A stretch of 64,000 nt of DNA from a bacterium (GCA_963681965.1 OY820579.1:1824001-1888000); one strand, 5' to 3'. Positions 33,824 through 52,677 are shown, counted from the first letter of the stretch. Notes: generated from the sequence alone by a model not told the origin. Made by a program: numbers and translations.

Positions 33824-33915
33824 ACAACTACGACTTCAGGAAAACGCCTGCGTCCAATTATTCAACTTTTTTACCGGCTCGATTGAGCCAATCGTTTACC
33901 ATTACAGAGGGAAGT

Positions 33916-35166: not shown

Positions 35167-35207
35167 TTCTTTAATTCCTGGCTTATTAGATCAGTTTTTT
35201 CTGGATT

Positions 35208-35240
35208 CGAAAAGGGCGTAGCGATACGCCCTTTTCGTTA
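35208..35240 (+). terminator. Rho-independent terminator after icd
   Basis: CGAAAAGGGCGTA-GCGA-TACGCCCTTTTCG. Confidence 0.85.
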
Positions 35241-36034
35241 ATAGAATATTTATATTAAACAAACTGATATATATTATAGTTAATAGTATGTGTGAATATT
35301 GTATTTATACTCAATAAATATACTTATTAAACGAAAGAAATGAGATTAAATGCTGTCGACAATTATTGAGCTAAGATTAGGTGCAAGTCCAGAGATGAAT
35401 CGAAAAGTTAATAAGTAGATCAGAAACTTTACGTTGAAGTAATTTTCGAATTGCATCCTCAACAATGATAAACTCTAGGAGAACTCATTCTTCTCTGACT
35501 CGAAACGTAACAATCGTCAGAAAATTGGATCGGATGTTGTCCAATTTTGTGAATCCCAATTGATATCAGGTCGCAAATCTGGATACCTCATCTTTCGAAT
35601 CGATTTGAATCGTTCCCATTGCGCGATTCTCTTGACATTTTCGATAGTTTGGTTTGGTGCAACGAATCATCGAATAAACACCTCTAACTCTCGCCTCTAG
35701 TGTTGCAAGAGCCGTATTTAGACATTATCTTGAACCCACAAGACACCAAGTAGTTCCCGGCTTTTCCGGCACGGTTTACGAAGTTCCAAATCCTCGCTAA
35801 CGATTAATTTAACTTTACTCTAGCGAGTGGTTACTCACCGGAATTTAGATGAGACTTGATATCCGTTTTACGATTGTTGTTTCGATTTATTCCGAAGTAG
35901 ACATCTTACTTCGGTTAGACGATTTGTCCATTCGGTGACCGAACGAAGTTCGCGCATGTTTGTGTGCTTTTAGATCTTTTTTATCAACCGGTTCCTGTGA
36001 CGCAAACCCACGAAATATTGGAGACGGGGTGGCG

Positions 36035-39000
36035 ATGAGAAGTTCAAAAATTATAGTCATTGTTCTGCTATCGTTGCTAGTGAGCGGATTAGCATTTGGT
36101 GCAACTTCGGGTAAAATCACCGGAAAGGTGATGCTTGACGACACCAAAGAAGGCGCGATTTCCGCATCGGTACTGATTCTCGAATTGAAGACCGGTGCGA
36201 AAACTGACTTTGAGGGAAATTACACCATCCTGAACATTCCCCCGGGAACGTATACATTGCGGTTCTCTTATGTCGGGTATGCTTCCGTCAAAGTCAATAA
36301 CGTGATCGTTACTTCGGGTGTCACATTTACTCAAAATGCGACATTGAAACCGGAAGCGCTTCAACGCGAAGAAATCGTCGTTAAAGCCGACCCGCCAAAA
36401 GTACAATTGGACGTGACCGGTGGCGATAAGACAATCCGTAAACAGGATATGGAGCGTACTTCGGCTAACAGTGTGCAGGATATTATCGCGAAAAAAGCCG
36501 GTGTCAAAGTTGATCATGAAGGCGCGCTTCACGTTCGCGGTGGTCGAAGAGGCGAAGTCGCAATGCTGCTCGATGGAATCGATATCCGCGATCCGCTTGT
36601 GGGAAGGATTAACGATAATGTTAACCTCGACGCCGACGCCATCAGCGAAATTAACTTTTTAACAGACGGTTTTTCGCCGGAATATGGTCAAGCCCTTTCT
36701 GGCATTGCCAACGCCAGTTTCCGCGAAGGCGATCCGGAAAAATATACGGCCAAGGCTGAATACACTTCCGATCAATTCAACAAAAAGTCGTCGTTTGGAC
36801 AGGATCGCATCACACTCTTCGTGAGTGGACCAATCCCCGGTACCCGAAAAGCGCTCAAGAACCCAATCACTTTCATGGTTCAAGCAACTTCAAGCCAAAC
36901 GAACACTTATCTATCCTACGGGATTCACCGTGAACCCAACGATTATCTTGGAATCGGAATCAAATTACCAGAAAAACAATATAATAACTACGATCTAACC
37001 TCGAAGTTTGCTTATCAATTTCCACCGGATAAATCGGGTGGCGCGAAAAAGATCACTCTTACTTACACCGGGTCATTTTCGCAGTGGGATCTCTATCCCA
37101 ATGGTGAAGCGAATGTAAGCGGCGATTACGGATATCGCTACAAATTCAATACCGAAAATCGCCCATGGGCAAGAAGTAACCGAAATTCGGTTAACGTTCA
37201 ATTCACGAACAACTTATCATCCAAGACGAATTACACTGTCAGTTTTACCTTCCAGAATTCACGCACATTGGTGCAACCGCGAAACAAAACGCCGGGTGAA
37301 TTTACGCTCCGCTCGCAAGTGGAAGATTACGAAGCCAATGGTCAGGATTTGAACGGTGACGGTTACCCCGATGGATTCGTCGATGCCAATGGCGACGGTA
37401 TTTATTCCGGTGGTGGACACGGATACGACGACGTGAATAAAAATGGCAAGTGGGATCGTGGCGAAGACTGGGTTGACCTAAATAGTAATGGTGTTTACGA
37501 TGCCTCAGAAACATTCACCGACCTCAACAGCAATGGTGTTTGGGATGTTGGTGAACCGTTCGTCGATCTGAATGGTAACGCCCGTTGGGATCCCGCAGAA
37601 CCCCAACTTCCGGAACAGGACTGGAATCACAATGGTCACTGGGATGGTGAACGATTTCAGGATGCCGACAAAGATAAGAAATTTACCGGTTGGAACTGGG
37701 TCGACAAGAACGGCAACGGTAAAATGGACGATGGCGAGCAACTCTGGGGCAACTCAGGTGAACGATTGGACGGCGACGGATACGACGATACGAATAACGA
37801 CGGTAAATGCAATAAGAAGGAACTCTTCGCTACCAGTCAAGATACACCCGAACCGTACATTGATGGCGATTACTTCTACGATACCGGTGAACCATTTATC
37901 GATCAACCCGATCCAGTCACTGGTGAATACAATGGAACTCGGGATGATAATGAATATTGGGTAGACTTACCTTCGACTAATGTTGGCTTCGGGATGATCG
38001 TAGACACATCTTCGCATTCCCTTCGCGAACCGACGCTTAACGGTAAGTACGACGATCCCGATGGTCAACCGGATGAATACGAACTTTTCTGCTACCCCGC
38101 GACGCCTTCACAATTGCGTGCCGACCCGACCCGCCCGGTAATCTATACCGGTCGATGGGATGGCGATGTTGCCAATTGGCCGCGCAAGAACGGACGACTT
38201 TTCCCCTATTATTTTGTCGATCGTTCCAACTCTGGAATTGCAAGCGATACTTTGCGTTCAACTTGGATCAAGCGAACGACAACTAATCTCGATCCAAAAA
38301 TCTTCAATCCACCTACCGGATCATACGTAGCTGGCGATCCGTTCACCGATTACAACAAGAATGGTGTCTGGAATGGTCGCGACTTGTTCTTAAATCCGGG
38401 ACAGTGGGATGAAAGCGCGATTTGGCAAGATCGTAAATCGGTCGAATATTCTTTGAAAACTACGTGGCAGTCGCAAATCAAGCATCACGAGTTAAAGGCT
38501 GGTGTCGAAGCCAAGTACCGCGACTTGCAGATGCAGTCGATTAGCAGCCCCGATATGGCTTACACTGGTGAAGTTCCGCTTCCGGCAGGTAGTCCCTGGC
38601 CGGATCGTGGTAACACCCGTGACTTCTATCATTACAAACCGATCGAAGGCGCATTCTATTTCAACGATAAGATGGAATTTGAAGGATTGATCGTTAACGC
38701 CGGTATTCGTAACGACTTCTTGATTACCGACCCCGAGTTGCGACAACAAACCAAAGACGCAGTATCTGCCGGTGTTCCGGGAGCTATTGTGGCACAACCC
38801 GGGAAAGCGATTTTCAGTCCGCGTCTCGGTATATCGCACCCGATTACTAAGACCTCGAAGTTATTCTTCAATTACGGTCACTTCTATCAGCGACCCGACT
38901 TCACGAATTTCTTCAAGTCGACCACGTCCAATGTGGCGTCGGGTTCGGTTGTCGGTAATCCCAATTTGGATTACACCAAGACCGTTCAATATGCATTGGG

Positions 39001-39820
39001 TGTCCAGACCGAACTTCCGAACGGTAGTTCGTTCATGATCCAAGGTTACTATAAGGACTATTTCAATCTTATCGGTACCCAAACCGAAAAATACGGTCCG
39101 TTGACGATCGACCGATATGCCAACAAGGCGTATGGTCGTGCTCGTGGCTTTGAAATCGAGCTGGATCATACCATTGAGAATATCGCGCGGGAAGGTGATT
39201 TGCGATTGAATTCCTCCTACGACTTCTCATACACTGCCGGTAAGAGTTCGACCCAAGATGCCGATGCTTTGAACCGACTGAATGGTGTTCCGGCAAATAC
39301 CGAAGAATATCCCTTGGATTGGGATGAACGACATCGTGTGAACGCTAGTTTCGGTTTGCAATTCGCGGAAGGGCGATACCCGTACATTGCAGATTTCAAA
39401 ATTCCGGTAGACGATTGGTTTATGTCGATGGAATTCCAATATGGATCGGGTACTCCTTATACTCCGTCAAAGTACACTACGGGTCTCGATCCTAATTTGA
39501 TCACCGCCAACAGCGCGCGATATCCGTGGACGGAAAATACCAACATGAGAATTGAGAAGTATTTCCGCATGGGTGCAAAATCGGTATCAAACAACCGTTC
39601 CAACAGGGTTATTTTCAGTGTCGGTTTGGATATCAATAACGTGTGGAACCGTCGAAATATACAGGGACTCTATTCGGAAACCGGTAACCCCTATCAGGCA
39701 ATCCACCCCGATGATCCCAATTACAATCCGTTTGATGCTCGGCAGGATTATGACGCAAATCCTCGCAATTTCTCGGCACCACGTCAGATTCTATTCCGCT
39801 TCGGTGTGTCGTGGGAATAA
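36035..39820 (+). CDS. TonB-dependent outer-membrane transporter with N-terminal carboxypeptidase-like domain and large Dx[DN]x[DN]G-repeat insert
   Basis: Signal peptide; GKITGKV...G.Y.ILNIPPGTY; plug HVRGGR.GE...DG...GFSPEYGQALSG; barrel FSPRLGISHPIT, GNPNL, PLDWD; C-terminal PRQILFRFGVSWE. Confidence 0.93.
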   Translation: MRSSKIIVIVLLSLLVSGLAFGATSGKITGKVMLDDTKEGAISASVLILELKTGAKTDFEGNYTILNIPPGTYTLRFSYVGYASVKVNNVIVTSGVTFTQNATLKPEALQREEIVVKADPPKVQLDVTGGDKTIRKQDMERTSANSVQDIIAKKAGVKVDHEGALHVRGGRRGEVAMLLDGIDIRDPLVGRINDNVNLDADAISEINFLTDGFSPEYGQALSGIANASFREGDPEKYTAKAEYTSDQFNKKSSFGQDRITLFVSGPIPGTRKALKNPITFMVQATSSQTNTYLSYGIHREPNDYLGIGIKLPEKQYNNYDLTSKFAYQFPPDKSGGAKKITLTYTGSFSQWDLYPNGEANVSGDYGYRYKFNTENRPWARSNRNSVNVQFTNNLSSKTNYTVSFTFQNSRTLVQPRNKTPGEFTLRSQVEDYEANGQDLNGDGYPDGFVDANGDGIYSGGGHGYDDVNKNGKWDRGEDWVDLNSNGVYDASETFTDLNSNGVWDVGEPFVDLNGNARWDPAEPQLPEQDWNHNGHWDGERFQDADKDKKFTGWNWVDKNGNGKMDDGEQLWGNSGERLDGDGYDDTNNDGKCNKKELFATSQDTPEPYIDGDYFYDTGEPFIDQPDPVTGEYNGTRDDNEYWVDLPSTNVGFGMIVDTSSHSLREPTLNGKYDDPDGQPDEYELFCYPATPSQLRADPTRPVIYTGRWDGDVANWPRKNGRLFPYYFVDRSNSGIASDTLRSTWIKRTTTNLDPKIFNPPTGSYVAGDPFTDYNKNGVWNGRDLFLNPGQWDESAIWQDRKSVEYSLKTTWQSQIKHHELKAGVEAKYRDLQMQSISSPDMAYTGEVPLPAGSPWPDRGNTRDFYHYKPIEGAFYFNDKMEFEGLIVNAGIRNDFLITDPELRQQTKDAVSAGVPGAIVAQPGKAIFSPRLGISHPITKTSKLFFNYGHFYQRPDFTNFFKSTTSNVASGSVVGNPNLDYTKTVQYALGVQTELPNGSSFMIQGYYKDYFNLIGTQTEKYGPLTIDRYANKAYGRARGFEIELDHTIENIAREGDLRLNSSYDFSYTAGKSSTQDADALNRLNGVPANTEEYPLDWDERHRVNASFGLQFAEGRYPYIADFKIPVDDWFMSMEFQYGSGTPYTPSKYTTGLDPNLITANSARYPWTENTNMRIEKYFRMGAKSVSNNRSNRVIFSVGLDINNVWNRRNIQGLYSETGNPYQAIHPDDPNYNPFDARQDYDANPRNFSAPRQILFRFGVSWE
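37421..37600 (+). repeat. Four tandem 45-bp (15-aa) repeats encoding Ca-binding-type loops
   Basis: GYDDVNKNGKWDRGE / DWVDLNSNGVYDASE / TFTDLNSNGVWDVGE / PFVDLNGNARWDPAE. Confidence 0.85.
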
Positions 39821-39837
39821 GGGAGAGGAGTAACCGC

Positions 39838-41835
39838 ATGAAAAAATCGATAGGTATCGCGATTCTCATCGCTCTGCTCGCGATCGGAACCGGATGTAAG
39901 AAAGACGACGACAATAATACCAACAGCGGAAACGTGATTTCCGGGCAATTTTCCGGAAATCAGTCGGGTACATTTATCGTTACGGATGACATCGAAGTTC
40001 CTGCTGGACAAACTTTGACGCTCGCGCCGGGCACGGTGTTGATGTTTCAGGATTCGGTGAAGATGCTTGTCCGTGGACGGTTAATCGCCGAAGCCGATTC
40101 CGTACACATGATTCGCTTCACCTCTGCGAAACCTGTACCATCCTCTGGCGATTGGGGTGGAATCATTTTCTATCCAAACAGCAGCGCCAATTATTCATCG
40201 ATGAAGTTCTGCTTTATTGGATATGGCAATCGGTTCAACAATGCCTACGAGCAAGATACATCGGCAATTTATAACAAGACGCCTGGCGCTGTCTTCAAAG
40301 GAATGGTTTCAATTTACGGTGCAACCGTTAAATTGGAGCGTTGCCAGCTTTTCAAAGCTGGGTGGGAAGGTATCGAAGTCCAAGGTGGTGGATCCGCAGA
40401 AGTCAATTTCTGCAATCTCTTTAAGACTTCGAACTGCGGTATGAGTATCCGTATCGGTGGTACGATTGATGTAAACAACACCAATGTCATCAGTAGTCTA
40501 GACGTTGGTTTGGTCGTTCACGATACCGTCGACATTCACGGCAATCAAATATCTTGCGGCTCTTACACCGGTGGCTACAATAATATTTGGTCGAATCGTT
40601 CCGGAGATTATAAACGAAAACCGACCGGAATATTAACTCCGTTAGCGAACGATATTAGCGAAGATCCGCAGTTTATCAATCCCGACAATTTTAATTTCAA
40701 TCTGAAGCCGAGTTCTCCAATCATCGATATGGGCAATCCATCATCCAAGTGGGACCAAGATACCCCATCGGATAGTTCACGCCCCGATATCGGTGTATTC
40801 TTTTTCCAGAAATCGCCAACGAAATTATTCGGTCCATTGAATCGTCATTTAACGAAAAACGTGTACCGTGTCATCGCCGATTGTTGGGTTCCGGCGGATA
40901 GCACCTTGATTATCGATCCAGGGTGCGTTATCAAGTTCGATAGTCTTTACGGAATTCATGTTCAAGGTACTCTTACTGCAATCGGTACTGCTTCCGATTC
41001 GATCGTGTTCACTTCGAATCGCGATAATCCAGCGGCTGGCGATTGGAAAAATATCTACTTTGATGGATTGACTTCGCACCGTAGTCAAATGCAATACGCG
41101 AAAGTAAAATTCGCAAGTTGGTATCTCCCCGCGCAAACAGCAGGAGCCGGTGCAATTGCATTGAATGGTGTATCCGTCAAATTGAACGACATCACAATTC
41201 AAGATTGTTTCAACAATGGTCTCGATTTAATCAATGGGTGCGGCGATACCATTTCCAATGTTACGATCGAACGATTTGGGTTGTATGGTATTTCGTGCAA
41301 TCTGAATATTAATACCGTCTTTAGACATGTTAAAATTCGCAATGGATTGGGTACCGGTATTAACATCGTCTCGAATTCCAATCCTAATTTGAACAACGTT
41401 CTGATCGCAGACAATGGTGGTAGCGGAATCGTAATGAGTCAGTTAAGCGCACCAATCATGACTAATCTTACGATTGCAAACAATCACTACGACGGTATCA
41501 CAGTTAGAACCAATTCTTCGCCACGGATGACAAATTCGATCGTCGCGTTGAATTATCGGTATGGCATCAATTTGCGGGAATCTTCGCAATTGAATTCCGA
41601 TACTTCGAATTTTTTCTGGTATCAGGGAAGTGTCGACCGCAGTTTCTGGCGCGACGATAGCTCGGGAAGAGCGAATCTGTTTGTGATCCTGCAAAGTGGA
41701 AGAACGGAGTATGTGGCGATTGATCCGACTCGGGTAGTCAATCCGATGTTCGATGAAACTTCCGGAGATAAGTATCGATTGATGAGTGGTTCTCCGGCAG
41801 CTGGTCACGGTGCATTCGCCGGTTGGGACAAGTAG
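39838..41835 (+). CDS. Lipoprotein with two right-handed parallel beta-helix modules
   Basis: Lipobox IGTG-C then KKDDD; duplicated TL.I.PG...G.L.A...I.FTS...GDW..I.F module; PbH1-like N..I..N...GI repeats; RBS GAGGAG. Confidence 0.82.
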   Translation: MKKSIGIAILIALLAIGTGCKKDDDNNTNSGNVISGQFSGNQSGTFIVTDDIEVPAGQTLTLAPGTVLMFQDSVKMLVRGRLIAEADSVHMIRFTSAKPVPSSGDWGGIIFYPNSSANYSSMKFCFIGYGNRFNNAYEQDTSAIYNKTPGAVFKGMVSIYGATVKLERCQLFKAGWEGIEVQGGGSAEVNFCNLFKTSNCGMSIRIGGTIDVNNTNVISSLDVGLVVHDTVDIHGNQISCGSYTGGYNNIWSNRSGDYKRKPTGILTPLANDISEDPQFINPDNFNFNLKPSSPIIDMGNPSSKWDQDTPSDSSRPDIGVFFFQKSPTKLFGPLNRHLTKNVYRVIADCWVPADSTLIIDPGCVIKFDSLYGIHVQGTLTAIGTASDSIVFTSNRDNPAAGDWKNIYFDGLTSHRSQMQYAKVKFASWYLPAQTAGAGAIALNGVSVKLNDITIQDCFNNGLDLINGCGDTISNVTIERFGLYGISCNLNINTVFRHVKIRNGLGTGINIVSNSNPNLNNVLIADNGGSGIVMSQLSAPIMTNLTIANNHYDGITVRTNSSPRMTNSIVALNYRYGINLRESSQLNSDTSNFFWYQGSVDRSFWRDDSSGRANLFVILQSGRTEYVAIDPTRVVNPMFDETSGDKYRLMSGSPAAGHGAFAGWDK

Positions 41836-41859
41836 ATTAACGTCGAAAGGGTTGTTTGA

Positions 41860-44697
41860 ATGCGACGCGGGTTACACATAATACTTCTGAGTTGTCTTTG
41901 TGCAACTTCCTGGGCGATGAACTATGCGCCCAAGGGACAGGATCGCGGACCAGTACGCAAAGGTGTTGCCGTTACTCAACTGTCCAATCAAAATATGCAA
42001 AATCGTGTTCACCGTGCCGGTGGCGTGTGGATGAACATGACCAATTACGGATTTTTCGGAAATGACAATCGCGGCGATGCCAATGCGATGGCCGATCCCG
42101 AATATCCGGGTGTATACGCACCACAGCTAGAATATCCGGGTGGTTCTGGTCGCGAATACCTATTCATGGGTGCGCTCTGGGTTGGAGCACTGATCCAGCA
42201 AACCGGAAAACCCGAATTTCCTCGCGTAAGTACAGGTGTTGATGGATGGGTCAATCCAAGTGGTCGACTGCGCGGTGAATTTTTCCCCGGTGAAGGCAAT
42301 CGAGCAGCAATCATCGAGCGGTCGAAAAATCTGAATATTGTCAATCGCTTGGGTGAAGCGGTGGATACGACTGGGGCGGTTAGTCAACAAGACTTTATCG
42401 CTACCTATACCGATACATTAACGGAAAGTTATTATGTGCCATCCGACGATATCGATGGAACACATATTCCGTTGGGAATTAAGGTCACTCAGAAAAGCTA
42501 TGCCTGGTCGTATAATTATGCTGAGAACTTTATTATTCTCGATTATGAAATCGAAAACATCGCTTCCAATTATTTAAAGAACGTGTATGTCGGAATTTAC
42601 TTGGATGCCGACGTTGGTATGGTAGATGAGACCGATCGTCACATCGATGATATCACTGGATTTCAGGAATTCTACTATCCTCCGGCAACCGAAGGTATTG
42701 AGTACGACTCCCTCCGTGATCGCAAGGTGATCAATTGTGCATGGATTGCTGATAACGATGGACGCCCGAATACGGTGCATAGCGGCAACGATTTCACCGT
42801 ACCCGATGTGATGGCGACTCGCGTACTTCGCGCTCCAAACCCATTTTTAAAGACATCTTACAACTGGTGGGTTTCAAATCAAAATACCGATCTTGACTAC
42901 GGTCCCAGTTGGCAGGATGCCAGTGTCGATGGCGAATGGCCGAATAACGTCAGTACCGCAATGGGTGACAAGCGAAAGTACATGATTTTGTCGAATCGCG
43001 AATTTGACTTTGATCAGACTTCGACGCGGTATGCTGGCGATCAAAGCTGGATCGATGCCGATTCCACCCAACAAGTCGATCTCGACAATCCAACTTTGCC
43101 CAAGCACAAGTGGAAAATGTTAACCGGAAACAAGCGGGACAATGCTACTCGTCTGAGCAATGGTTTCGATACTCGCTTCTTACTGTCTTGGGGTCCGTTA
43201 GGTATTCTTGATGGTGCCGATGAAAATGGAAAACTTCGGTATCGATTAAATCCGCAGGAAAAATTCTGGATCACAATGGCTGTGATCATGGGTAAAGGAT
43301 TTCACAATCCTGACAATGAACAACTTGGTTCCACTATTGAATCCAGTAAATTCCGCTTCGTTCGCTTAACCGAAGCAGCCGCACAAGCAGCGTCGGTGTT
43401 CGATAATTCGATGAAAGACACCCGCACGGTACGGTATCCCCACGGCGACGGTTGGTTTGGAGAAGATGTCGGTGCCGATGGTCTCTATACCGATGCATCG
43501 ACTGGATTCGGAGATAGTATTGTCATCGAAGGTATTTTCAAAACCATGTATCCCGGAAAAGATGACGGCGAGAAAAACGGTCGTATCGATTCGCTGCGTG
43601 TTGCAGCATGGGCTGGTTTAACTGAAGATACCCATCCGTGGTATCCCGATCGACTGACCTATATGAAGGGTAACGGCGTTTTGGATGCTGGTGATGGCGA
43701 TCCCGATTTTCTTGGACCGCCCCCGCCTCCAGCACCGAAAGTCGAAATTGTCTCATCGCCGAATGCAATCACTATTGTCTGGTATGCTTCTTCGGGTGCC
43801 GACGATCCTGAAACGTTCGTAGATCCGTTCTCAACCCAGCGCGATTTCGAAGGATTCCGATTGTATGTTTCGAATTCCGGTTTGGAGAACGATTTCAGTT
43901 TTGTGAAGCAGTGGGATAAAATCGATTTCGGATTTTTCTGGGATGAAGGTCCAAACCGTGGTACGCTAGCCGATTATCCGGTTGGAATGACTCAGGATTC
44001 ATTCGAACATCTTCCTGATTCAATCCGGTTCCGCCGCGTTGACGGTTTACTGCAAGTGATGAAAGCTTCCGGTAAAAATAGCGGATTTAATGGAATTCTA
44101 TCAATCAAACATGTTCCGGTAATGCGGAATGGTGTCTTGGTTGATTCAACTTATCGATGTTTTTCGTACACGATTTCGGATGTATCACCACTTTACGCCC
44201 GATATTATGCAATTACTTCTTACGATTTTGGCGATCCGAAACGCGGTACTGAAGAACTTGAAACGGCGAAGACTGCAACGATGCAGCACACTGCACCATC
44301 AGGTACTCCGGATCGACCGGTTGGTGTCGTACCGAATCCGTATCGCGTTGATCGAGATTACACGCTTCAGCATTCGGGTGGTTTGTCGTGGGAAAATCAG
44401 GACGACGGTACCGTCGATTTCTTCCCGCAGCAAGACCGTCGGATGTGGTTCTATAACTTGCCGAGACAGTGTTTGGTGCGAATCTTCACCGTTTCCGGCG
44501 ATTTGGTTGCGGCAATACCGCACAATATCGAAGGCGATCGACATCTGTGCACTAATTACGATTATGCCGTCTGTTGGAATTTGCATAATCGCAATGAGCA
44601 AATGGTCGTCAGCGGTTTATACCTGTTTTCCGTCGAAGATAAAACTCCGGGTAATTCGGGCAAGATCCAGACCGGCAAGTTCGTTATCATCCGTTGA
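41860..44697 (+). CDS. Large secreted protein of unknown function with FN3-like region and divergent T9SS-type C-terminal domain
   Basis: Sec signal; NMTNYGFFG, EYPGGSG.EYLF.GALWVG, QKSYAWS; PPPAP...DFEGFRLY; C-terminal VVPNPY...FYNLP...RIFTVSGDLV...SGLYLFSVE...GKFVIIR. Confidence 0.75.
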   Translation: MRRGLHIILLSCLCATSWAMNYAPKGQDRGPVRKGVAVTQLSNQNMQNRVHRAGGVWMNMTNYGFFGNDNRGDANAMADPEYPGVYAPQLEYPGGSGREYLFMGALWVGALIQQTGKPEFPRVSTGVDGWVNPSGRLRGEFFPGEGNRAAIIERSKNLNIVNRLGEAVDTTGAVSQQDFIATYTDTLTESYYVPSDDIDGTHIPLGIKVTQKSYAWSYNYAENFIILDYEIENIASNYLKNVYVGIYLDADVGMVDETDRHIDDITGFQEFYYPPATEGIEYDSLRDRKVINCAWIADNDGRPNTVHSGNDFTVPDVMATRVLRAPNPFLKTSYNWWVSNQNTDLDYGPSWQDASVDGEWPNNVSTAMGDKRKYMILSNREFDFDQTSTRYAGDQSWIDADSTQQVDLDNPTLPKHKWKMLTGNKRDNATRLSNGFDTRFLLSWGPLGILDGADENGKLRYRLNPQEKFWITMAVIMGKGFHNPDNEQLGSTIESSKFRFVRLTEAAAQAASVFDNSMKDTRTVRYPHGDGWFGEDVGADGLYTDASTGFGDSIVIEGIFKTMYPGKDDGEKNGRIDSLRVAAWAGLTEDTHPWYPDRLTYMKGNGVLDAGDGDPDFLGPPPPPAPKVEIVSSPNAITIVWYASSGADDPETFVDPFSTQRDFEGFRLYVSNSGLENDFSFVKQWDKIDFGFFWDEGPNRGTLADYPVGMTQDSFEHLPDSIRFRRVDGLLQVMKASGKNSGFNGILSIKHVPVMRNGVLVDSTYRCFSYTISDVSPLYARYYAITSYDFGDPKRGTEELETAKTATMQHTAPSGTPDRPVGVVPNPYRVDRDYTLQHSGGLSWENQDDGTVDFFPQQDRRMWFYNLPRQCLVRIFTVSGDLVAAIPHNIEGDRHLCTNYDYAVCWNLHNRNEQMVVSGLYLFSVEDKTPGNSGKIQTGKFVIIR

Positions 44698-44718
44698 TTG
44701 CTGGCAAGGAGCGTATTC

Positions 44719-45738
44719 ATGAAGAGAAGTTGGCGTAACCTGGCGATTCTGACGCTCGTGATGTGTCTGCCGGGAATAGTGTTCGCGCAAGCAAAAGTCG
44801 GAACTGCGACATTTCAGTTTCTGAAAATCGGTCCTTCCGCGCGAGCTGTTGCGATGGGTGAGTCTTTCATCGCAATCTCGAACGATGCATCGGCGACTTT
44901 TTACAATCCGGGTGCGATGATTACGATCAAGCGTCCGAAATACTTGATGTCGCATGTTTCGTATCCGGCTGGTGTCAGCTACAATTATCTTTCCGGAGTG
45001 TATCCCGTTCCCAGAATGGATGGCGTGTTGGGTGCATTTGTTTCAGGATTGTCAACCGACAATATGAACGAAACAACGCCCGAAATGCCGTACGGAACTG
45101 GAAGAACATTTACTGTTTCGGAGATGACGGCTGGTGTGTCTGCTTGCAGAAAACTAACTGATAAATTTTCGGTTGGGTTAACCGGTCGATTTATCAAATC
45201 AAATCTGGCAGACGTGTCAACTACCGGATGGTCGGCGGATGTTGGAACATACTACGAAACCGGCTGGAATAAAATCCGAATTGCAATGGTGATTCAGAAT
45301 TTCGGTCCGGACGTGAAGTATCTTCAAACTGAAGAAAATCTTCCGATGAATTTTAAATTTGGTGCTGCCGCCGAAGTATTTAATCGAGACGACCAATCGG
45401 TACTGGTAGCCTTGGAAGGATGGCATCCGAACGACAATATCGAAATGATTGCCGTTGGTGCCGAATACGATTATCACAATTTTATTCAATTTCGAATTGG
45501 TAAGAAGGTAAACGGTATCCGTCGGGATTCGTGGAGCGATTACGCTGCCCATCCGACTTCGATGGATCCATTTATCGAATATCCGATCATCAACGAAAAA
45601 GGCGGAATATCTTTTGATGGCGCTTCGGTAGGTTTCGGTTTGAAACTGCCGATGGGGCTTGCGATCGACTATTCGCTATCGAATATCGGCTTTTTCGGCG
45701 ATCTGCACCGTTTTACGCTCAGTTATGCAATGAAGTGA
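44719..45738 (+). CDS. PorV/PorQ-family outer-membrane barrel
   Basis: FLKIGPSARAVAMGE...NDASATFYNPG signature, LTDKFSVG, ADVG, NFG, LPMNFKFG, HRFTL near the C-terminus; RBS AAGGAG. Confidence 0.88.
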   Translation: MKRSWRNLAILTLVMCLPGIVFAQAKVGTATFQFLKIGPSARAVAMGESFIAISNDASATFYNPGAMITIKRPKYLMSHVSYPAGVSYNYLSGVYPVPRMDGVLGAFVSGLSTDNMNETTPEMPYGTGRTFTVSEMTAGVSACRKLTDKFSVGLTGRFIKSNLADVSTTGWSADVGTYYETGWNKIRIAMVIQNFGPDVKYLQTEENLPMNFKFGAAAEVFNRDDQSVLVALEGWHPNDNIEMIAVGAEYDYHNFIQFRIGKKVNGIRRDSWSDYAAHPTSMDPFIEYPIINEKGGISFDGASVGFGLKLPMGLAIDYSLSNIGFFGDLHRFTLSYAMK

Positions 45739-45745
45739 GGGTAGT

Positions 45746-48700
45746 GTGAGAATACTAAGCAAACGACGTTACGTCTTCGTACTCCTGACTGCCACCTTGA
45801 TGGTACTCGGATGCGCGTTAAGTGCATGGGCAATTGATGTGCAGGGTAACCAATCGGGGATTTGGAGTTATAGCAACAGCCCCTATCGCATTACTGGAAA
45901 CGTAACTGTGCCGAAGGGTGACACACTCTTTATCGAAGCGGGTGTGCAGGTAATTTATACGGGTTCGTATGAAATCTTGGTCGACTCCAATGCGACGTTT
46001 ATCGTGCGTGGAGATTCCTCGTACACGAGAACCATAACTTCGATCGACACCGTGAAATTCACCAGCTCGAATGCTTCACCAGATACTTTGTGGGGACGAG
46101 GCGTTCGCTTTATTCTTGCGAACAACAACTCCCAAATTAGATACGCTAAAGTCAATATGATGCACGCTCGGGGAATCTGGCCGAAGAACAATGGTGGCGC
46201 ATTTTACATCGAAGGATGCAGTCCGCGATTTAAATTCGTCGAAGTTTATGGCTGTCGTGCCGATTACTACGGTGGTGCATTTCATTTTTGGTTCTCCAAC
46301 AGTACCCTTGAGCAAGTATTAATCGATACCTGTTTTTCCCAGCAGGGTGGTGCCGGTATCGACGCCTGGTATTCGACGATCAATCTTCGGTTTTCTACTA
46401 TCGTTCGAAACTATATGCCTGACGCAGCATGGATATGGGATCGTGGTGCCGGTTTATACATCGGTTCCAATTCACTTGTCCGAATTTCGCACTGCATTTT
46501 CATGAAAAATAATAATCTTCCTGCTAGTGTGACGCGTGAAAGTGGCATCAATACGACTGGTGAAAACAGCAGTTTTACTTCTGAATATTCATTTTGGAAG
46601 GGAATTGCCTCGGGCAATGGAAACGTGATTTTGGACTTTACAAGTTCCTATTCGCCATTTTTGAGATCTCCACTGTGGTGTCCCACTGTTGCCAGTCCAT
46701 TCGTCGATGTCGGTGATAAAGATTTTGTCGGTGATGCCGATTCTACTTATGGATTCCGATTTGAACCGGCTCCCAATGGTAACCGCATCAATATTGGGTA
46801 TTACGCTGGTACAGTATATGCTGCACGGTCATTGCCGTTGGCAAAAATTAACGGAACGAACGACGAGTCGGTAACCACGAATGATACATTGCTCTGGCTC
46901 AAAGACGGTTCAGCAGTGAATAATGGTGTAACTGTTACCCAAACGATCATCATTAAGAATCAGAGTAAAGTTCCTCACGATGCCAGTGCATTGCGAATGA
47001 GCAATCTTATGGTGCACGATTCATCGCTGACCATCCAATTAACGATTAACGATCGCGATACGATCATTCAGAGTCTTGCTTCGGTACCGCCAATTTTCGG
47101 TCCCAACGCAAACAAAGCCGATACTGCATTAACATTGAAGATTAATTGGACACCCCGCGTAACCGGTGATTCCGTTCGATTCTTATCCCAGATTACCTGG
47201 GATTGGAACGATAGCAATACTGTTCAACAACCCTATATATTCTGGTTTAAAGCGCTGGGAATTAATCCGCATATCGCAGCCGGTATCATCGATAATTCCG
47301 GACACGAAGTAGCAATTGATACGGGCGGTGTCGACTTTGGTGTTCAACGCCTCCACTCGAAAACGATTAAGAAATTACCTGTTCATAGTACCGGTACTAC
47401 AACACTGGACATCTATTACGCTCGATTCGTCAATTCGACTCGCGCCGGTTACTCGGTAGATAAAATCTGGTGGGCGAAATTCGATTCCATTTACACGCGC
47501 GATACCAATGGTTACATGGACAACGTCGGTAAAACATTGACTGCCGGTCGATCGGACACGATTTATTTCGCCTTTACACCGGATTCGGTCGGTGCTTACG
47601 AAGAAACGATGTATATCCTCTCCAGCGATACGACCATCAGTTTCCCGGTGAAAGGTTTTTCGCGAGGTGCTTATCTTCGTACCGATGCTACACACAACTT
47701 CACCAATCGATCGATTGGATTTGTACCTGTCGGGCAAAACCGCCGGATGTACATCAAGATTTCGAATAATGGAAACGATACACTGAAAATCGACAGTATC
47801 CGATTCTTCAAGCGAAATGGCACCGATTATTCCACTACGATGTTAACTGACATGACCCATCAAATCGTCGTGGCACCTGTCGGTGAATCGTATCGTCCGA
47901 CTGCCGATTCAATCCCGGTAGTCTTTGCACCGGATAGTGTCAAATTGGATACGATTCACGGAATGATTTATTCCAACAGTTATCGGAGTGAGCCGATCAG
48001 TGTTATCGTTCGCGGTGTTTTGTTCGGAACCTATTTGTCATCGAACATTTCCGGTACCCTTACATCGGCAAATTCACCTTATGTCGTTACTGGATCGGTT
48101 TTAATTGATAGTACCAGCGCATTGCGCATCGAAAGCGGTTCCAAAGTTCTATTCGAACCGAATGCAACACTCAATATTCGCGGTAAGTTGGTCATCCATG
48201 GAACTGGTTACGATACCACGAAGTCGGTACGGTTTGGTGCACTCGATTCAACCAACAATCGGAAAGCATTGTTGAATTTCGTTGAAACGTCGGAAGACAA
48301 TTCGATTTCTTATACCGAATTTTGTGGTCCATTACGAGACAATACCACTCGCGAACCATTGATTAAGGTAAAACGTTCAACAATTTCATTAGATCATTGT
48401 ACTTTCACGAAGGGTAAATCGGATACCGGGTCGGCGATTAACGCTTATCAGAGCGCAGTCAACCTAACTCGTAATTACTTTACCAATAACAAGAGTACAC
48501 TGGGCGGCGCTTTTTATTCATTTGATAGCCGCGTGGTAATGATCCGAAATCGATTCGAAGCGAATATTGCCGATAGTATTGGTGGTGCGTGCTACACTCG
48601 TGGCAACAATTCGAATTTCTCATCGTACAACGATCTTTATAAATTGAATACTGCTTATAAAGGTGCTGCAATCGGTATCTATGACGGTGCAACGACCGAC

Positions 48701-49960
48701 TTTGTGAATGATGTATTTCATAATAACATCGCCGCTAATGCTGGCAATGCTATTTACGAGCGACAAGCAGTTATCCGAATGAATTCGTCATTGATTGTCG
48801 GACTATCGGGCAGTTCAACGGACATTACTGGACCTTCCGGCTTCTCTGAACCACTTCGGTTCTTCTCTTATATCGAACGCGAAAATGCCGCTTTCAATGC
48901 AGCTGCATTGTGGGGCACCGATACCGTCAATTATCGACTATTGTCCAATGCACCAGCAGTTGATGCCGGCGATTCTGCTTCGACCCGAAACGACTTCTGG
49001 TTCCCACCAGCCGACAGTACCGCAAGAAACGATGCCGGATTGACCGGTGGTCCGTATGCCGGTACCGGTGACATTAACGATGTTGGTATCGTTTTATTTT
49101 CTAATCCTGTAAATGGCGATATGCCGGATGCAATCGTATTCACCAATTCGCAGACAAGTGAGTTGATCACAGTTGATTCACTTCGCTATAAACCGGATTA
49201 CGAGGCAAGTAGAGTTTTGAACTTTGTTGCGATCTCGAATGGATCGACTGTTTATCGGGCACGTATTCCTCAAAGCGGTGCTGCTGTATTGACGGTATTC
49301 GCTCATTCGCCATCACAAGCCTTCGAAGTTTCGCGCCGAATCGGTGTGATTTCTTCCGGTACAATGAAAGTTGGTCCGTGGACCGTTCATGCCGGTAGTG
49401 GTTCCGGATTGGTTAGCTGCCAACTGACAACCCTTGAAGCGATCGACAATATTGGACCGGCAATCGACATCTCGCAACCGGATATGCGATCGACCATTGT
49501 TACTTTTAACGGCGGTTTACCGACTGATACTGAGCTGGGATTATTCAAATTAGTGAATAACGAATGGCAATTGACTGGTCGAATCGATCGCGGAACCGAT
49601 TTCGCTACTGGTTCGGTTTCTGGATCCGGTACCTATCGAATTGCTGCGGTCACTGCGGAATCGAACAATATCGAAATTCCGAACGGTTTCTATATGTCGC
49701 AAGCATATCCGAATCCGTTTAATCCATCGACCAATTTGCGATTGAATATCGCTCGAACGGGTTTGTATACCGTTAAAGTGTACGATCTCTTGGGTCGTGT
49801 CGAAGCCGACTTGTTCAGCGGTACGTTGCAAGCGGGATCGTTCCAGATCAGATGGGATGGCGTCAATGACGACGGTCATACCGCTGCGTCAGGTGTTTAT
49901 TGGGTGAAAGCCACCGGTCCGTCCGGTGTCGCTGTTCGGAAAGTACTGTTACTGAAATAG
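45746..49960 (+). CDS. Large secreted beta-helix/Ig-domain protein with T9SS type A (FlgD-Ig) C-terminal domain
   Basis: Signal peptide; two beta-helix blocks with GGA[FC]/FxxN repeats; ASH/choice-of-anchor-D-like Ig domains (DFG, ISNNGNDTL.I, F.PDS); C-terminal YPNPFNPST...YDLLGR...WDG...ASGVY...RKVLLLK. Confidence 0.85.
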   Translation: MRILSKRRYVFVLLTATLMVLGCALSAWAIDVQGNQSGIWSYSNSPYRITGNVTVPKGDTLFIEAGVQVIYTGSYEILVDSNATFIVRGDSSYTRTITSIDTVKFTSSNASPDTLWGRGVRFILANNNSQIRYAKVNMMHARGIWPKNNGGAFYIEGCSPRFKFVEVYGCRADYYGGAFHFWFSNSTLEQVLIDTCFSQQGGAGIDAWYSTINLRFSTIVRNYMPDAAWIWDRGAGLYIGSNSLVRISHCIFMKNNNLPASVTRESGINTTGENSSFTSEYSFWKGIASGNGNVILDFTSSYSPFLRSPLWCPTVASPFVDVGDKDFVGDADSTYGFRFEPAPNGNRINIGYYAGTVYAARSLPLAKINGTNDESVTTNDTLLWLKDGSAVNNGVTVTQTIIIKNQSKVPHDASALRMSNLMVHDSSLTIQLTINDRDTIIQSLASVPPIFGPNANKADTALTLKINWTPRVTGDSVRFLSQITWDWNDSNTVQQPYIFWFKALGINPHIAAGIIDNSGHEVAIDTGGVDFGVQRLHSKTIKKLPVHSTGTTTLDIYYARFVNSTRAGYSVDKIWWAKFDSIYTRDTNGYMDNVGKTLTAGRSDTIYFAFTPDSVGAYEETMYILSSDTTISFPVKGFSRGAYLRTDATHNFTNRSIGFVPVGQNRRMYIKISNNGNDTLKIDSIRFFKRNGTDYSTTMLTDMTHQIVVAPVGESYRPTADSIPVVFAPDSVKLDTIHGMIYSNSYRSEPISVIVRGVLFGTYLSSNISGTLTSANSPYVVTGSVLIDSTSALRIESGSKVLFEPNATLNIRGKLVIHGTGYDTTKSVRFGALDSTNNRKALLNFVETSEDNSISYTEFCGPLRDNTTREPLIKVKRSTISLDHCTFTKGKSDTGSAINAYQSAVNLTRNYFTNNKSTLGGAFYSFDSRVVMIRNRFEANIADSIGGACYTRGNNSNFSSYNDLYKLNTAYKGAAIGIYDGATTDFVNDVFHNNIAANAGNAIYERQAVIRMNSSLIVGLSGSSTDITGPSGFSEPLRFFSYIERENAAFNAAALWGTDTVNYRLLSNAPAVDAGDSASTRNDFWFPPADSTARNDAGLTGGPYAGTGDINDVGIVLFSNPVNGDMPDAIVFTNSQTSELITVDSLRYKPDYEASRVLNFVAISNGSTVYRARIPQSGAAVLTVFAHSPSQAFEVSRRIGVISSGTMKVGPWTVHAGSGSGLVSCQLTTLEAIDNIGPAIDISQPDMRSTIVTFNGGLPTDTELGLFKLVNNEWQLTGRIDRGTDFATGSVSGSGTYRIAAVTAESNNIEIPNGFYMSQAYPNPFNPSTNLRLNIARTGLYTVKVYDLLGRVEADLFSGTLQAGSFQIRWDGVNDDGHTAASGVYWVKATGPSGVAVRKVLLLK

Positions 49961-49968
49961 GAATTCCT

Positions 49969-50574
49969 ATGAAGAAGTTACTTCCATTGATTTTGTTAAT
50001 GTCAATATTCGTCGGATGCAAATCCGATGATAAAGCGACAGGACCGACTGGAGATGCCAGAACGATCGCGGCGAGCGGTTGGGATTTATTCGAAGTTGGC
50101 GAATATTCGAACGCGTTGAATCTGTTCAACCAAGCTGAAGCGATCGATGGCGGTTTAGTCGACGCTAAAATCGGAATTGGCTGGTCGGAAACGCGCGCAA
50201 GTACACACAACTATCAACGCGCAATTGCCAAGTTCGCTGAAATCTTGAATCCTCAAACGGGATTGGCGAAAAACTCCAATGATGCTCAAGCCGGCTTGGC
50301 ATATGCTTATTATGGAAATTCGCAATTCAACGAAGCGGATTCTGCTGCGACCTATGTTGTTGTGCGATCGTCGATTTGGAACTTTATTCACGATCAATCA
50401 ATATCCGTACAAGATCTCCACGCGTTACGCGCGTCTTGCAGATTTAACGTCGGTAATTTCGATTCCTCGCTGGCTGCTATTCAAAGAATCGACGCCGACT
50501 TTTTTGTCGACGTCAATAGGGCAGATGGTCGAGCATTATTGGCGCAAGAAATCGAGAGGTGGTTGGGAAGATGA
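49969..50574 (+). CDS. TPR-repeat lipoprotein
   Basis: MKK..lipobox FVG-C then KSDDK; GWDLFEVGEYSNAL..F..A and AGLAYAYY TPR helices. Confidence 0.8.
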   Translation: MKKLLPLILLMSIFVGCKSDDKATGPTGDARTIAASGWDLFEVGEYSNALNLFNQAEAIDGGLVDAKIGIGWSETRASTHNYQRAIAKFAEILNPQTGLAKNSNDAQAGLAYAYYGNSQFNEADSAATYVVVRSSIWNFIHDQSISVQDLHALRASCRFNVGNFDSSLAAIQRIDADFFVDVNRADGRALLAQEIERWLGR

Positions 50575-52625
50575 GAAACCGTATCTTCGATCGCATTTTG
50601 TCGATCCGTCCTTGTAACAAAGGTCTAATTCTGTCGATGCTCATTGCAGCGACTCTATTTGGCTGCGGAAAATACGAAGGGTCGGTGAACTCCAATCAGG
50701 CACCGGATGTCGATTTTGCCACGACGCCGCTCGACAGCACGCAATTCAGCGCATCACCGGTTGTATCGTGGTTCGGAACCGATCCCGATGGTTTTGTTGA
50801 GTATTACAGCTATGCCGATATCGTTGACCCGGTATCTCTTGCCGATGTCGGTGCACCGCAACGGTACATTGATAATAAGATGATTCCGCAGGATGCTTGG
50901 ACTAGAACGTCGTCAACTAGCGACACAATTGTGCTTCGAACTTCCGAAGGCGATACGACACGTCACGTTCTATATCTCAAGGCGACTGACGATAAAGGCT
51001 TGGATTCGAAAATCAAGTATCGAATTTTCGATCGCTCGAATCAACCACCGAATCCACCGGAAATCAAAAATCCGACTACCGATGAATGGAAGTCGCGTCT
51101 AGAATTGCCCGATACGATGTATTGTATCGAGAATGTGACTACTCTTTGGACGGGAATTAATTTCAATTGGAAAGCGAGCGACCCCGATTCTAAAATCGGA
51201 CAGAATATTCCGCTGTCTTACAAATATTACTTGATCAAAGCTCCGAACGATACAATCCGTCGGTACGTAACGACTGGTTGGATCACTACGAAAACACTCA
51301 CAATTACCGGTCTCGAAACTGGTTCGTATCGCTTTGAAGTGTACTCGCGAGACGACGGTATGACTACTTCGCGCGCTCCGGGTGTTTGTTACTTTACTGT
51401 TATCAAACCGACGTTCGACAAGAACATCATGATATACATGGAAGCCAATACCAGCAATACCGGCTTCACTTATGCTCGATTAATTCCTGACACGGCGAAA
51501 GCATATTACAAGAATTTACTGCAAACGATTCGAACCAGTTATCCGCAATTCCGCAATCTTCGCTACGATGTGAACAACGATGAAGATGTGAAATTCGTGG
51601 TATTGGATTCGGAACGAGTGCGCGATATTCCGTCAATGATGCAGCTGTCGCGGTATCGCTTGGTCTTATGGATGCAGGATGCCGGATATAATTCGGCGCG
51701 ATTGTTTAGTGGCATCCGATTGCAACGCTTTAATAAGTATCTCAATGTCGGTGGTAGAATGCTGGTCTCGGGACGCTTATTATCGGTCAATCAATTGTCG
51801 GTACCTGCGGCTGCCGATACAGTGTATCGCGTCCAACGTAACGAATTTTTTACCAATTATATGGGTTGCCAATTGGTCGACGACCCAGTTACTCGCGCTT
51901 CAACGAAACCCGATACCTCGGAATTTCGCGCAGCAATTTCTCAAGTTGGCGGTTTGTCGAATCTGACATTCGATTCTACCATCTTCTTTGATCAGTCCAA
52001 GTATTATAACCGTCGCGTTTATCCTGCCAACACGCAGTGGCGAGGTTGTCCCGGCGTCGATTATTTATCGACGACATCGGCTCGAACACTGTATACATTT
52101 ATGTCGGCAACCGAAGATACGGTTTTCTACCCAACGCACTATACGGGTGAACACTCGACAGTCATTGAACGTCGAGACGCAACCATTGGTGGGCAAACGA
52201 TCTCGTATCCTCCAACTCCGACAAATTGTTTAATCCAGATTATTCGCGACGGCGATATTACGTCAATGACTCGAGTTGAGAATATCACTAAACGAAATCT
52301 CGATCCAAATTCGAATTGGCGCGGATCTGTTCGATCGATTACCGGTAGCTATGCCTTCATAACGTACCAATATGGTGAACCGTGGATGGCATCGGATACG
52401 CTCGAAGTCGATTACTCTTATCGTGCTACTTCCCCGCGTACGGGTAAACCAATTTGTACATCCAATGAAATCTCGATGACTTACGGAAATACAACGGTAT
52501 CGGTATTGTTAACGAGAACGGTCTTTTGCTCCTTCCCATTCTATTTCCAGCACCAAGCGGAAGTACCCCAGAATTTTGGGTATTTGCTTAACTGGTTATT
52601 AGGTTCACCGAGCGACAATCTGTAG
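50571..52625 (+). CDS. Lipoprotein with FN3/Ig-like domains and C-terminal flavodoxin-fold (GATase-like) domain
   Basis: Lipobox LFG-C; NQAP..W.GTDPDG and NQPP..W.ASDPD modules, ITGLETGSYRFEV; LSRYRLVLW...YLNVGGRMLVSG...FPFYF; ATGA overlap. Confidence 0.7.
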   Translation: MRNRIFDRILSIRPCNKGLILSMLIAATLFGCGKYEGSVNSNQAPDVDFATTPLDSTQFSASPVVSWFGTDPDGFVEYYSYADIVDPVSLADVGAPQRYIDNKMIPQDAWTRTSSTSDTIVLRTSEGDTTRHVLYLKATDDKGLDSKIKYRIFDRSNQPPNPPEIKNPTTDEWKSRLELPDTMYCIENVTTLWTGINFNWKASDPDSKIGQNIPLSYKYYLIKAPNDTIRRYVTTGWITTKTLTITGLETGSYRFEVYSRDDGMTTSRAPGVCYFTVIKPTFDKNIMIYMEANTSNTGFTYARLIPDTAKAYYKNLLQTIRTSYPQFRNLRYDVNNDEDVKFVVLDSERVRDIPSMMQLSRYRLVLWMQDAGYNSARLFSGIRLQRFNKYLNVGGRMLVSGRLLSVNQLSVPAAADTVYRVQRNEFFTNYMGCQLVDDPVTRASTKPDTSEFRAAISQVGGLSNLTFDSTIFFDQSKYYNRRVYPANTQWRGCPGVDYLSTTSARTLYTFMSATEDTVFYPTHYTGEHSTVIERRDATIGGQTISYPPTPTNCLIQIIRDGDITSMTRVENITKRNLDPNSNWRGSVRSITGSYAFITYQYGEPWMASDTLEVDYSYRATSPRTGKPICTSNEISMTYGNTTVSVLLTRTVFCSFPFYFQHQAEVPQNFGYLLNWLLGSPSDNL

Positions 52626-52646
52626 TATGAATATTTCATTTTCGAA

Positions 52647-52677
52647 AATCCCCCCTCAGTCCGAGGGGGGATTCTTT
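52647..52677 (+). terminator. Hairpin ending the TBDT operon, overlapping the next RBS
   Basis: AATCCCCCCTC-AGTCC-GAGGGGGGATT-CTTT immediately before ATG 52678. Confidence 0.75.

Follow-up and report, generated by a model that had tools for sequence, protein, structure and literature searches.

A conserved operon encodes a TonB-dependent transporter, a PorV/PorQ-family barrel and a secreted protein predicted to dock on that barrel by a divergent C-terminal domain

We analysed a 64,000-nt window of a bacterial genome (GCA_963681965.1; OY820579.1, contig 1 coordinates 1824001-1888000 of a 4.24 Mb genome in one contig) and, within it, a cluster of seven open reading frames (ORFs), g1 to g7, all on the + strand between positions 36035 and 52625 (Table 1; positions are those of the window unless a contig is named). 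They encode a TonB-dependent transporter (g1), two secreted proteins (g3 and g5), a PorV/PorQ-family barrel (g4) and three lipoproteins (g2, g6 and g7), and they are followed by the gene for a polytopic membrane protein (g8). The cluster is real, strongly conserved and apparently undescribed, and the product of g4 is predicted to bind the C-terminal domain (CTD) of g3 as PorV proteins bind their partners. A sequence-only reading of this DNA had proposed a SusD-less transporter operon in which a dedicated PorV paralogue tethers type IX secretion system (T9SS) cargo beside the transporter as a lid or capture module. Our analysis partly supports that interpretation; a lack of conserved synteny or co-evolution, of a confident predicted interface or of a T9SS translocon, or a SusD fold in a lipoprotein, would have spoken against it, and none of these was found among those examined.

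The assignment of g4 to the PorV/PorQ family was clear (NF033709, 180.5 bits against a cut-off of 90; 177.7 bits in the genome search), and its profile matched PorV of F. johnsoniae (6h3i_F, 3.6e-15). It scored below both equivalog cut-offs, with 77.6 bits for PorV (NF033710, cut-off 250) and 108.4 bits for PorQ (NF033711, cut-off 220), and it is not a PorP/SprF protein (TIGR03519, 15.7 bits against a cut-off of 90.55). The complex of g4 with the g3 CTD was predicted from the g4 alignment and the last 150 residues of g3 with the CTD alignment. The ipSAE was 0.93 in three runs, compared with 0.01 for the best of three controls; partner pLDDT lay between 74 and 76, and 96% or more of the contacts were shared. 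Of 157 solved pairs 116 attained the mark, compared with 2 of 215 mismatched ones, a calibration that is only rough here, where our own alignments were used. The predicted interface uses invariant motifs of both proteins. Most of a conserved insert in the g3 tail falls beyond this interface and may be turned towards a further partner. Because solved PorV-CTD complexes exist (the 8gl6 series), this predicted docking is evidence of a PorV-like binding mode and not of exclusivity; a confident interface of the kind that the sequence-only reading called for was obtained for this one pair, but it does not establish the private nature given to this barrel.

The CTD of g3 is visible by profile comparison only. 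Neither TIGR04183 nor PF18962 matched the g3 tail, and the curated CTD models yielded weak matches alone, to the CTDs of PorU (E 0.013; E 0.34 in the PDB) and PorZ (E 0.054). CHU_C, which represents type B domains, matched weakly in 8 of the 27 orthologous g3 tails (best E 0.038). A profile of these 27 tails was compared by hhalign with that of 201 type A CTDs from the same genome, which gave 91.3% (E 9e-7) in an alignment reaching the last residue; the reversed control gave 6.6% and eight column shuffles at most 0.5%. The earlier description of g3 as a CTD protein is supported by profile comparison, although the curated models fail. Mean column identity in the CTD is 53%, and the insert, which follows the motif VVPNPYR, covers about 17 profile columns in the hhalign comparison and is longer in some orthologues. 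With this predicted interface and high conservation of the domain, g3 may retain its CTD.

We then considered the conservation of the cluster. With g4 as the seed, a search of species genomes yielded 171 relatives; 80 loci were kept, many of them cut by contig ends. Near these g4 relatives tblastn detected g7 in 70 of the 80 loci, g3 in 69, g2 in 56 (some being cross-hits to g5), g1 in 49, g5 in 38 and g6 in 29. The commonest order was g1-g2-g3-g4-(g5-g6)-g7, with the variants g2-g3-g5-g6-g4-g7 and, in Delongbacteria-titled genomes, g1-g3-g7-...-g4; g5 is an accessory member of the cluster and g6 an accessory that travels with g5. FastTree trees of g1, g3, g4 and g7, built from the window and 30 loci in which all four genes were complete, had 20-23 of 28 splits in common, with Spearman coefficients of 0.78-0.95 between patristic distances and no value as high in 300 permutations. 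These four genes are co-inherited, and it is co-inheritance, not contact, that the trees show. The survey of gene neighbourhood and co-phylogeny suggested at the outset thus came out in favour of a coherent gene set.

In the window's GTDB phylum, the g4-type barrel was present in 74 of 79 genomes (E up to 1e-40), mostly as one strong copy, and in 48 of the 51 high-quality ones. It was also found in 14 of 16 genomes from the phylum of a Delongbacteria-titled genome and in 253 of 285 (E up to 1e-50) from that of an Ignavibacteria-titled genome; all three tallies count g4 and not whole clusters. The window's phylum includes Caldithrix abyssi-, KSB1-, LCP-89- and Zixibacteria-titled genomes, so NCBI labels overstate the number of phyla; the Caldithrix abyssi-titled genome carries the cluster. 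In several genomes of the phylum with 253 positive genomes, two g4-type barrels with identical scores lie about 3.6 kb apart, in what looks like a tandem repeat of cargo and barrel genes kept alike.

This conservation bears on the alternative that g1 to g7 are co-transcribed outer-membrane proteins which form no single complex; g4 would then be no more than a member of a set of about eight PorV-family paralogues, and g3 would be ordinary cleaved cargo. In the genome PorV_fam gave 11 matches, mostly in unrelated contexts, and the docking prediction could reflect a generic PorV-CTD likeness. However, congruent trees accompany a gene order maintained across three GTDB phyla, the conservation of the g3 CTD goes far beyond what a disposable signal would require, and its conserved insert lies mostly outside the predicted g4 interface. 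We consider this alternative highly unlikely.

The genome encodes T9SS components on which export of g3 would depend. The translocon SprA was recognised in a 2221-residue frame (SprA_N, 96.1 bits), the sortase PorU (619.5 bits) adjoins the shuttle PorV (PorV_fam, 283.1 bits) in a canonical pair at contig 1 1801519-1805821, and at least 201 ORF ends carry type A CTD tails. SprA is present in 75 of the 79 genomes of the window's phylum. The TIGRFAMs for GldL, GldM and GldN and PF12081 had no match in the genome, but the TIGRFAMs were silent in control genomes too, so that absence does not follow, and GldK was represented by partial FGE-domain matches below the cut-off only. The core system sought by the sequence-only reading was accordingly recovered for SprA, PorU and PorV, and not for GldL, GldM and GldN with the models tried; in this lineage the motor and ring of the T9SS could be of another kind or strongly diverged. 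We also observed a second PorU-like gene (contig 1 27700-34010; 1738 aa, Peptidase_C25 199.5 bits), with a PorV-family barrel (72.6 bits) directly after it.

Given this background, g3 and g4 might act within the T9SS or the envelope itself, as a PorZ-PorQ-like pair in glycolipid presentation or cargo processing, with the transporter and lipoproteins as structural parts and g8 supplying a glycan. Such a role would fit the PorQ score of g4, which exceeds its PorV score (108 against 78 bits), the restriction of the weak g3 tail matches to PorU and PorZ CTDs, the conservation of g8, and a g4 prevalence that tracks SprA in the phylum (74 and 75 of 79 genomes); it would also serve a very large CTD repertoire. 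However, a better PorQ-like barrel (130.8 bits) and a PorZ-like ORF (764 aa, 91.7 + 41.5 bits) are encoded elsewhere in the genome, as is the canonical PorU-PorV pair, and g3 is without PorZ-like beta-propellers. A plugged TonB-dependent barrel is not known to have a role in T9SS attachment. We regard an accessory role in secretion as unlikely, and since separate PorZ-like and PorQ-like candidates exist, g3-g4 is less likely to be the organism's own PorZ-PorQ.

To characterise g3 further, its AF2 (AlphaFold2) model was examined (pLDDT 70.6). Residues ~45-520 form a predicted galactose-mutarotase-like beta-supersandwich, followed by a low-confidence linker rich in D, G and P, FN3-like domains at ~627-800 and the CTD at ~796-945 (44245-44697). 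The best structural match of the supersandwich was 1lf6_A (VIA; Z 18.7, root-mean-square deviation (rmsd) 2.8, 237 aligned residues), and the N-terminal domains of GH94, GH116 and GH15 enzymes, their non-catalytic part, matched as well, in agreement with Foldseek. The (alpha/alpha)6 catalytic domain is missing from the model, while a C-terminal beta-sandwich is present. Curated families had no match to g3, sequence and profile searches of the PDB returned nothing at E up to 1, and an Atlas search gave unnamed clusters only, 30 of 30 without a common Pfam family. Two g3 paralogues were observed in the genome, at contig 1 2995365-2998130 (full length, 52.5% identity) and 3922996-3924666 (679 aa, 48.6% identity over residues 26-620, with a canonical Por_Secre_tail CTD of 39.5 bits). 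Neither adjoins a transporter or PorV-like gene. The existence of paralogous operons in this genome was rejected, as the g3 paralogues and the other PorV-family paralogues are without an adjacent transporter.

The transporter g1 combines a plug domain (PF07715, 33.4 bits) and a match to the 22-strand TonB barrel family (PF00593, 68.3 bits) with CarboxypepD_reg sequence at residues 28-116 (CarbopepD_reg_2, PF13715, 62.3 bits; PF13620, 50.4 bits). Its alignment profile matched the solved plugs and barrels of siderophore and haem receptors (PhuR 8.9e-16, Cir 6e-13), whereas of the SusC homologue 9hfj_A it matched the N-terminal extension only (1.5e-7). No SusC/RagA NCBIfam model was among the matches at E up to 0.01, and phmmer returned nothing at E up to 0.001. 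The transporter had earlier been placed beside the SusC type, an assignment that is not supported, as only its N-terminal extension resembles SusC. Correctly foreseen were the absence of a SusD lid, with no SusD family in the eight proteins and other folds in the models of g3 and g7, and that of recognisable carbohydrate-active enzymes (CAZymes), peptidases and regulators: family searches of the operon and flanking genes found no match to SusD, CAZyme, peptidase or regulator families. For a SusD fold, g2, g5 and g6 were judged by sequence only, and g3 and g7 by their models.

Two further elements of g1 were noted. EEIVVKA, at residues ~112-118, resembles a TonB box and is a candidate for one. 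A conserved insert of about 200-250 residues at ~445-640 (~37367-37954) holds about eight DxNxNG repeats of EF-hand or dockerin-like type, and the D/G-rich linker of g3 is similar to it. Pfam had no family for either the repeat insert or the linker, and both may be calcium-binding surface elements. As a separate observation, the first 185 residues of g1, comprising the signal peptide and CarboxypepD_reg (36050-36604), share 69.7% identity with the N-terminal part of a vWF_A-VWA-YfbK_C protein (contig 1 2451889-2452440) that is unrelated to g1, which suggests a recent copy or exchange of the domain.

By its architecture alone, an N-terminal extension followed by plug and barrel, g1 is also of Oar type. 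This raises the alternative that the operon forms an export or surface-assembly machine, which exports or displays an operon product (the lipoproteins, or a glycoconjugate made with g8) and does not import nutrients. Transporters with the Oar architecture can be required for protein secretion, according to the accessible part of PMC6434023, but the same part reports that this extension dominates the importing SusC-like transporters of Bacteroidetes. The scarcity of context for import, with no catabolic or uptake genes nearby, would suit an export machine, as would the conserved membrane glycosyltransferase-like g8 after the operon and the near-universal, single-copy nature of the module. Against it, g3 and g5 already have the T9SS route and a PopC-like cargo is missing, and we judge the export role improbable.

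The products of g2, g5, g6 and g7 may be surface proteins. Among g2 orthologues a lipobox was found in 32 of 41 and the acidic tail in 21, and among g6 orthologues in 26 of 30, all 26 with the acidic tail. Acidic residues likewise follow the lipid Cys in g7 orthologues. In Bacteroidota such residues are the criterion for surface export (PMC12578637, available part), and their presence suggests that g2, g6 and g7 are surface exposed. TIGR04183 recognised the type A CTD of g5 with 35.4 bits in the whole protein and 42.6 bits in the tail alone (cut-off 23), and the beta-helix-like modules of g5 are weakly similar to g2 (E 1e-4). For g6 the matches at E up to 1 were to TPR and YfiO only, with no SusD family. 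The AF2 model of g7 (pLDDT 82.4) agrees with the earlier call of FN3 and GATase folds: two FN3/PKD-like domains precede a GATase1/ThuA/GIFT-like domain whose matches in a wide VIA search were the IFT52 N-domain (5fms_A; Z 14.6, rmsd 4.2, 207 aligned residues), a GH42 domain (Z 14.2) and 3rht_A (Z 13.9). No catalytic triad was found among the invariant columns of the g7 orthologue alignment, no family of the curated libraries matched, and sequence and profile searches of the PDB returned nothing at E up to 1.

Taken together, these results lead us to propose, with the balance of probability evenly poised, that the products of the operon form a single complex of the outer membrane and cell surface, assembled via two export routes, for nutrient capture. 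In this model g3, and perhaps g5, would cross the outer membrane through the T9SS; g3 would keep its insert-bearing CTD and be held by it on the g4 barrel, as in PorQ-PorZ and PorV-PorU; and the lipoproteins g2, g6 and g7 would be flipped to the surface. Arranged around g1, the parts would capture a polymer, for which the beta-supersandwich, beta-helix and GIFT/GATase1-like folds make a glycan the likeliest identity, and g1 would import it with TonB energy. The g3-g4 pair would fill the place of the SusD lid or the surface glycan-binding proteins of Bacteroidota utilisomes, and the membrane glycosyltransferase-like g8 may modify a component. As the module occurs almost throughout the phylum, mostly in single copy, its substrate is probably a general one and not a niche polysaccharide. 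Only tentatively, and with doubt prevailing, do we extend this to the more specific proposal that a T9SS-delivered receptor, with a permanently retained CTD on its own PorV/PorQ-type barrel, is the functional lid or capture arm of a TonB-dependent importer and that the whole forms a core machine, passed on vertically and almost universal, in Calditrichota-like and neighbouring phyla of the Fibrobacterota-Chlorobiota-Bacteroidota (FCB) group.

Several points weigh against nutrient capture by such a complex. The docking score may reflect likeness to the solved PorV-CTD structures (8gl6 series) and is silent on any preference of g3 for g4 over the housekeeping PorV; the complex prediction covered the pair of g4 and the g3 CTD. 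In the arrangement of LCP-89- and Zixibacteria-titled genomes, g4 follows g5-g6 and not g3, and in one Delongbacteria-titled genome about five g3 homologues stand against a single g4 orthologue. The rule for the surface-export signal is established for Bacteroidota only. The operon and its neighbours differ from a typical utilisation locus in holding no degrading enzyme, no regulator and no gene for uptake in the periplasm or inner membrane, and a near-universal single copy would fit a housekeeping envelope role equally well.

The cluster shares features with several known systems. A PorV/PorQ-family barrel holds a T9SS-exported protein by its uncleaved CTD in P. gingivalis (PMC10202324, available part), and the PorZ-PorQ and PorU-PorV pairs of Porphyromonas gingivalis resemble g3-g4 in the family of g4, the weak CTD likeness of the g3 tail and the predicted docking. 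They differ in that g3 and g4 are encoded side by side within a transporter operon, and in that g3 has a beta-supersandwich and is neither a propeller protein nor a C25 peptidase. With SusC/SusD (RagA/RagB) the cluster has in common a CarboxypepD_reg TonB barrel and surface lipoproteins with Ig/FN3 stalks and binding domains, and chain G (435 residues) of 8aa2, a levan utilisome, was matched weakly by g7 in Foldseek. In contrast to SusC/SusD, it is without a SusD family, a SusC/RagA signature, glycoside hydrolases and a regulator, two of its components would travel via the T9SS, and it includes a PorV-like barrel.

A cargo gene adjoining its own barrel gene is also a feature of type B cargo with PorP/SprF barrels, such as SprB-SprF, where the private barrel is needed for surface anchoring (PMC9143113 and PMC10202324, as far as their accessible parts go); g4, however, is of the PorV/PorQ family and the g3 tail aligns to type A CTDs. 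Oar of Myxococcus xanthus has the same domain architecture as g1, a comparison that concerns shared domains only, and Oar acts in protein secretion with no known link to a PorV-like barrel or the T9SS. The placing of g4 beside g1 has a structural precedent in BamG-BamH of the Bacteroidota beta-barrel assembly machinery, in which a FadL/PorV-type 14-strand barrel packs on a larger barrel and its loops hold a surface lipoprotein (PMC12578637, PMC12611786, available parts), although family and function are different and BamA is not in the cluster. The ddbABCDEF loci were rejected as a counterpart, being, in the accessible part of PMC12478041, another system, one that has nucleases and lacks a PorV-like barrel. 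In its available part, the Caldithrix genome paper (PMC5317091) mentions B12 and thiamine transporters only. No description of the cluster was found among open PMC papers and bioRxiv.

T9SS-bearing FCB phyla other than Bacteroidota are abundant in sediments and waters. To our knowledge, SusCD utilisomes explain polymer uptake in Bacteroidota only, and we know of no account of how transporters are armed in these other phyla. If true, the proposed complex would link T9SS and TonB-dependent transport in one assembly and would be an alternative, possibly older, solution to the SusD of Bacteroidota. PorV-family barrels, known as shuttles, would also gain a role as permanent anchors, one general for surface complexes beyond secretion. 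The cluster would be a defined and conserved target for structural and genetic work, and its near-universal presence suggests that the module is central to the physiology of these phyla.

Table 1. Features of the cluster and its borders in the 64,000-nt window
Feature	Coordinates	Strand	Description
Non-coding stretch	35167..36034	.	868 nt from the icd terminator to g1; without ORF
g1	36035..39820	+	TonB-dependent transporter, 1261 aa; signal peptide, CarboxypepD_reg N-terminal extension, plug, barrel
g2	39838..41835	+	Right-handed beta-helix lipoprotein; Beta_helix 55-58 bits, NosD weak; lipobox ...GTGC then KKDDD
g3	41860..44697	+	945-aa secreted protein; signal peptide, beta-supersandwich, linker, FN3-like domains, divergent CTD
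g4	44719..45738	+	PorV/PorQ-family 14-strand-type barrel; NF033709; ORF open from TTG 44698, likely start ATG 44719
g5	45746..49960	+	1404-aa T9SS cargo; type A CTD, TIGR04183; beta-helix-like modules
g6	49969..50574	+	TPR lipoprotein, 201 aa; TPR_2, TPR_19; Cys then KSDD
g7	50571..52625	+	Lipoprotein, 688 aa; two FN3/PKD-like domains and a GATase1/ThuA/GIFT-like C-terminal domain
g8	52627..54558	+	Polytopic membrane protein; NF047440 112.2 bits, cut-off 200
GC-rich hairpin	52651..52670	+	CCCCCTC/GAGGGGG, 3' of the g7 stop

The seven co-oriented, tightly packed genes, the ATGA overlap and the hairpin were all present as first described. When signal peptides or lipoboxes are used to set the starts, the spacing from g1 onwards is 17, 24, 0 or 21, 7 and 8 nt, and g6 and g7 are joined by the ATGA overlap (ATG 50571-50573, TGA 50572-50574). 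The products of all eight genes each have a signal peptide, a lipobox or transmembrane segments. The hairpin had been taken to close the operon. Its T tract is poor (ATTCTTTAT), and the hairpin serves as a weak terminator or else is a structure within the first codons of g8, in whose frame the peptide across the hairpin is partly kept in the closest relative. As the g8 ORF is open from an ATG 1 nt past the g7 stop codon and a g8 homologue lies directly 3' of g7, on the same strand, in 21 of the 80 loci, the hairpin exists but may not mark the end of the operon. g8 has many hydrophobic segments and no match in a Pfam search, and its score, though below the cut-off, points to a distant relationship with the putative glycosyltransferases of the LA_3751/LA_3752 family.

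A promoter or leader is presumed to lie in the non-coding stretch before g1. Rfam gave no match at the gathering threshold across the whole window, this stretch included, and a sigma-70 scan found sites no commoner than in shuffles; these phyla may use other promoters. The cluster is flanked by housekeeping genes, with aconitase and isocitrate dehydrogenase upstream and an epimerase and alternative complex III downstream. The isocitrate dehydrogenase gene (33883-35166) directly precedes g1 in 16 of the 80 related loci.

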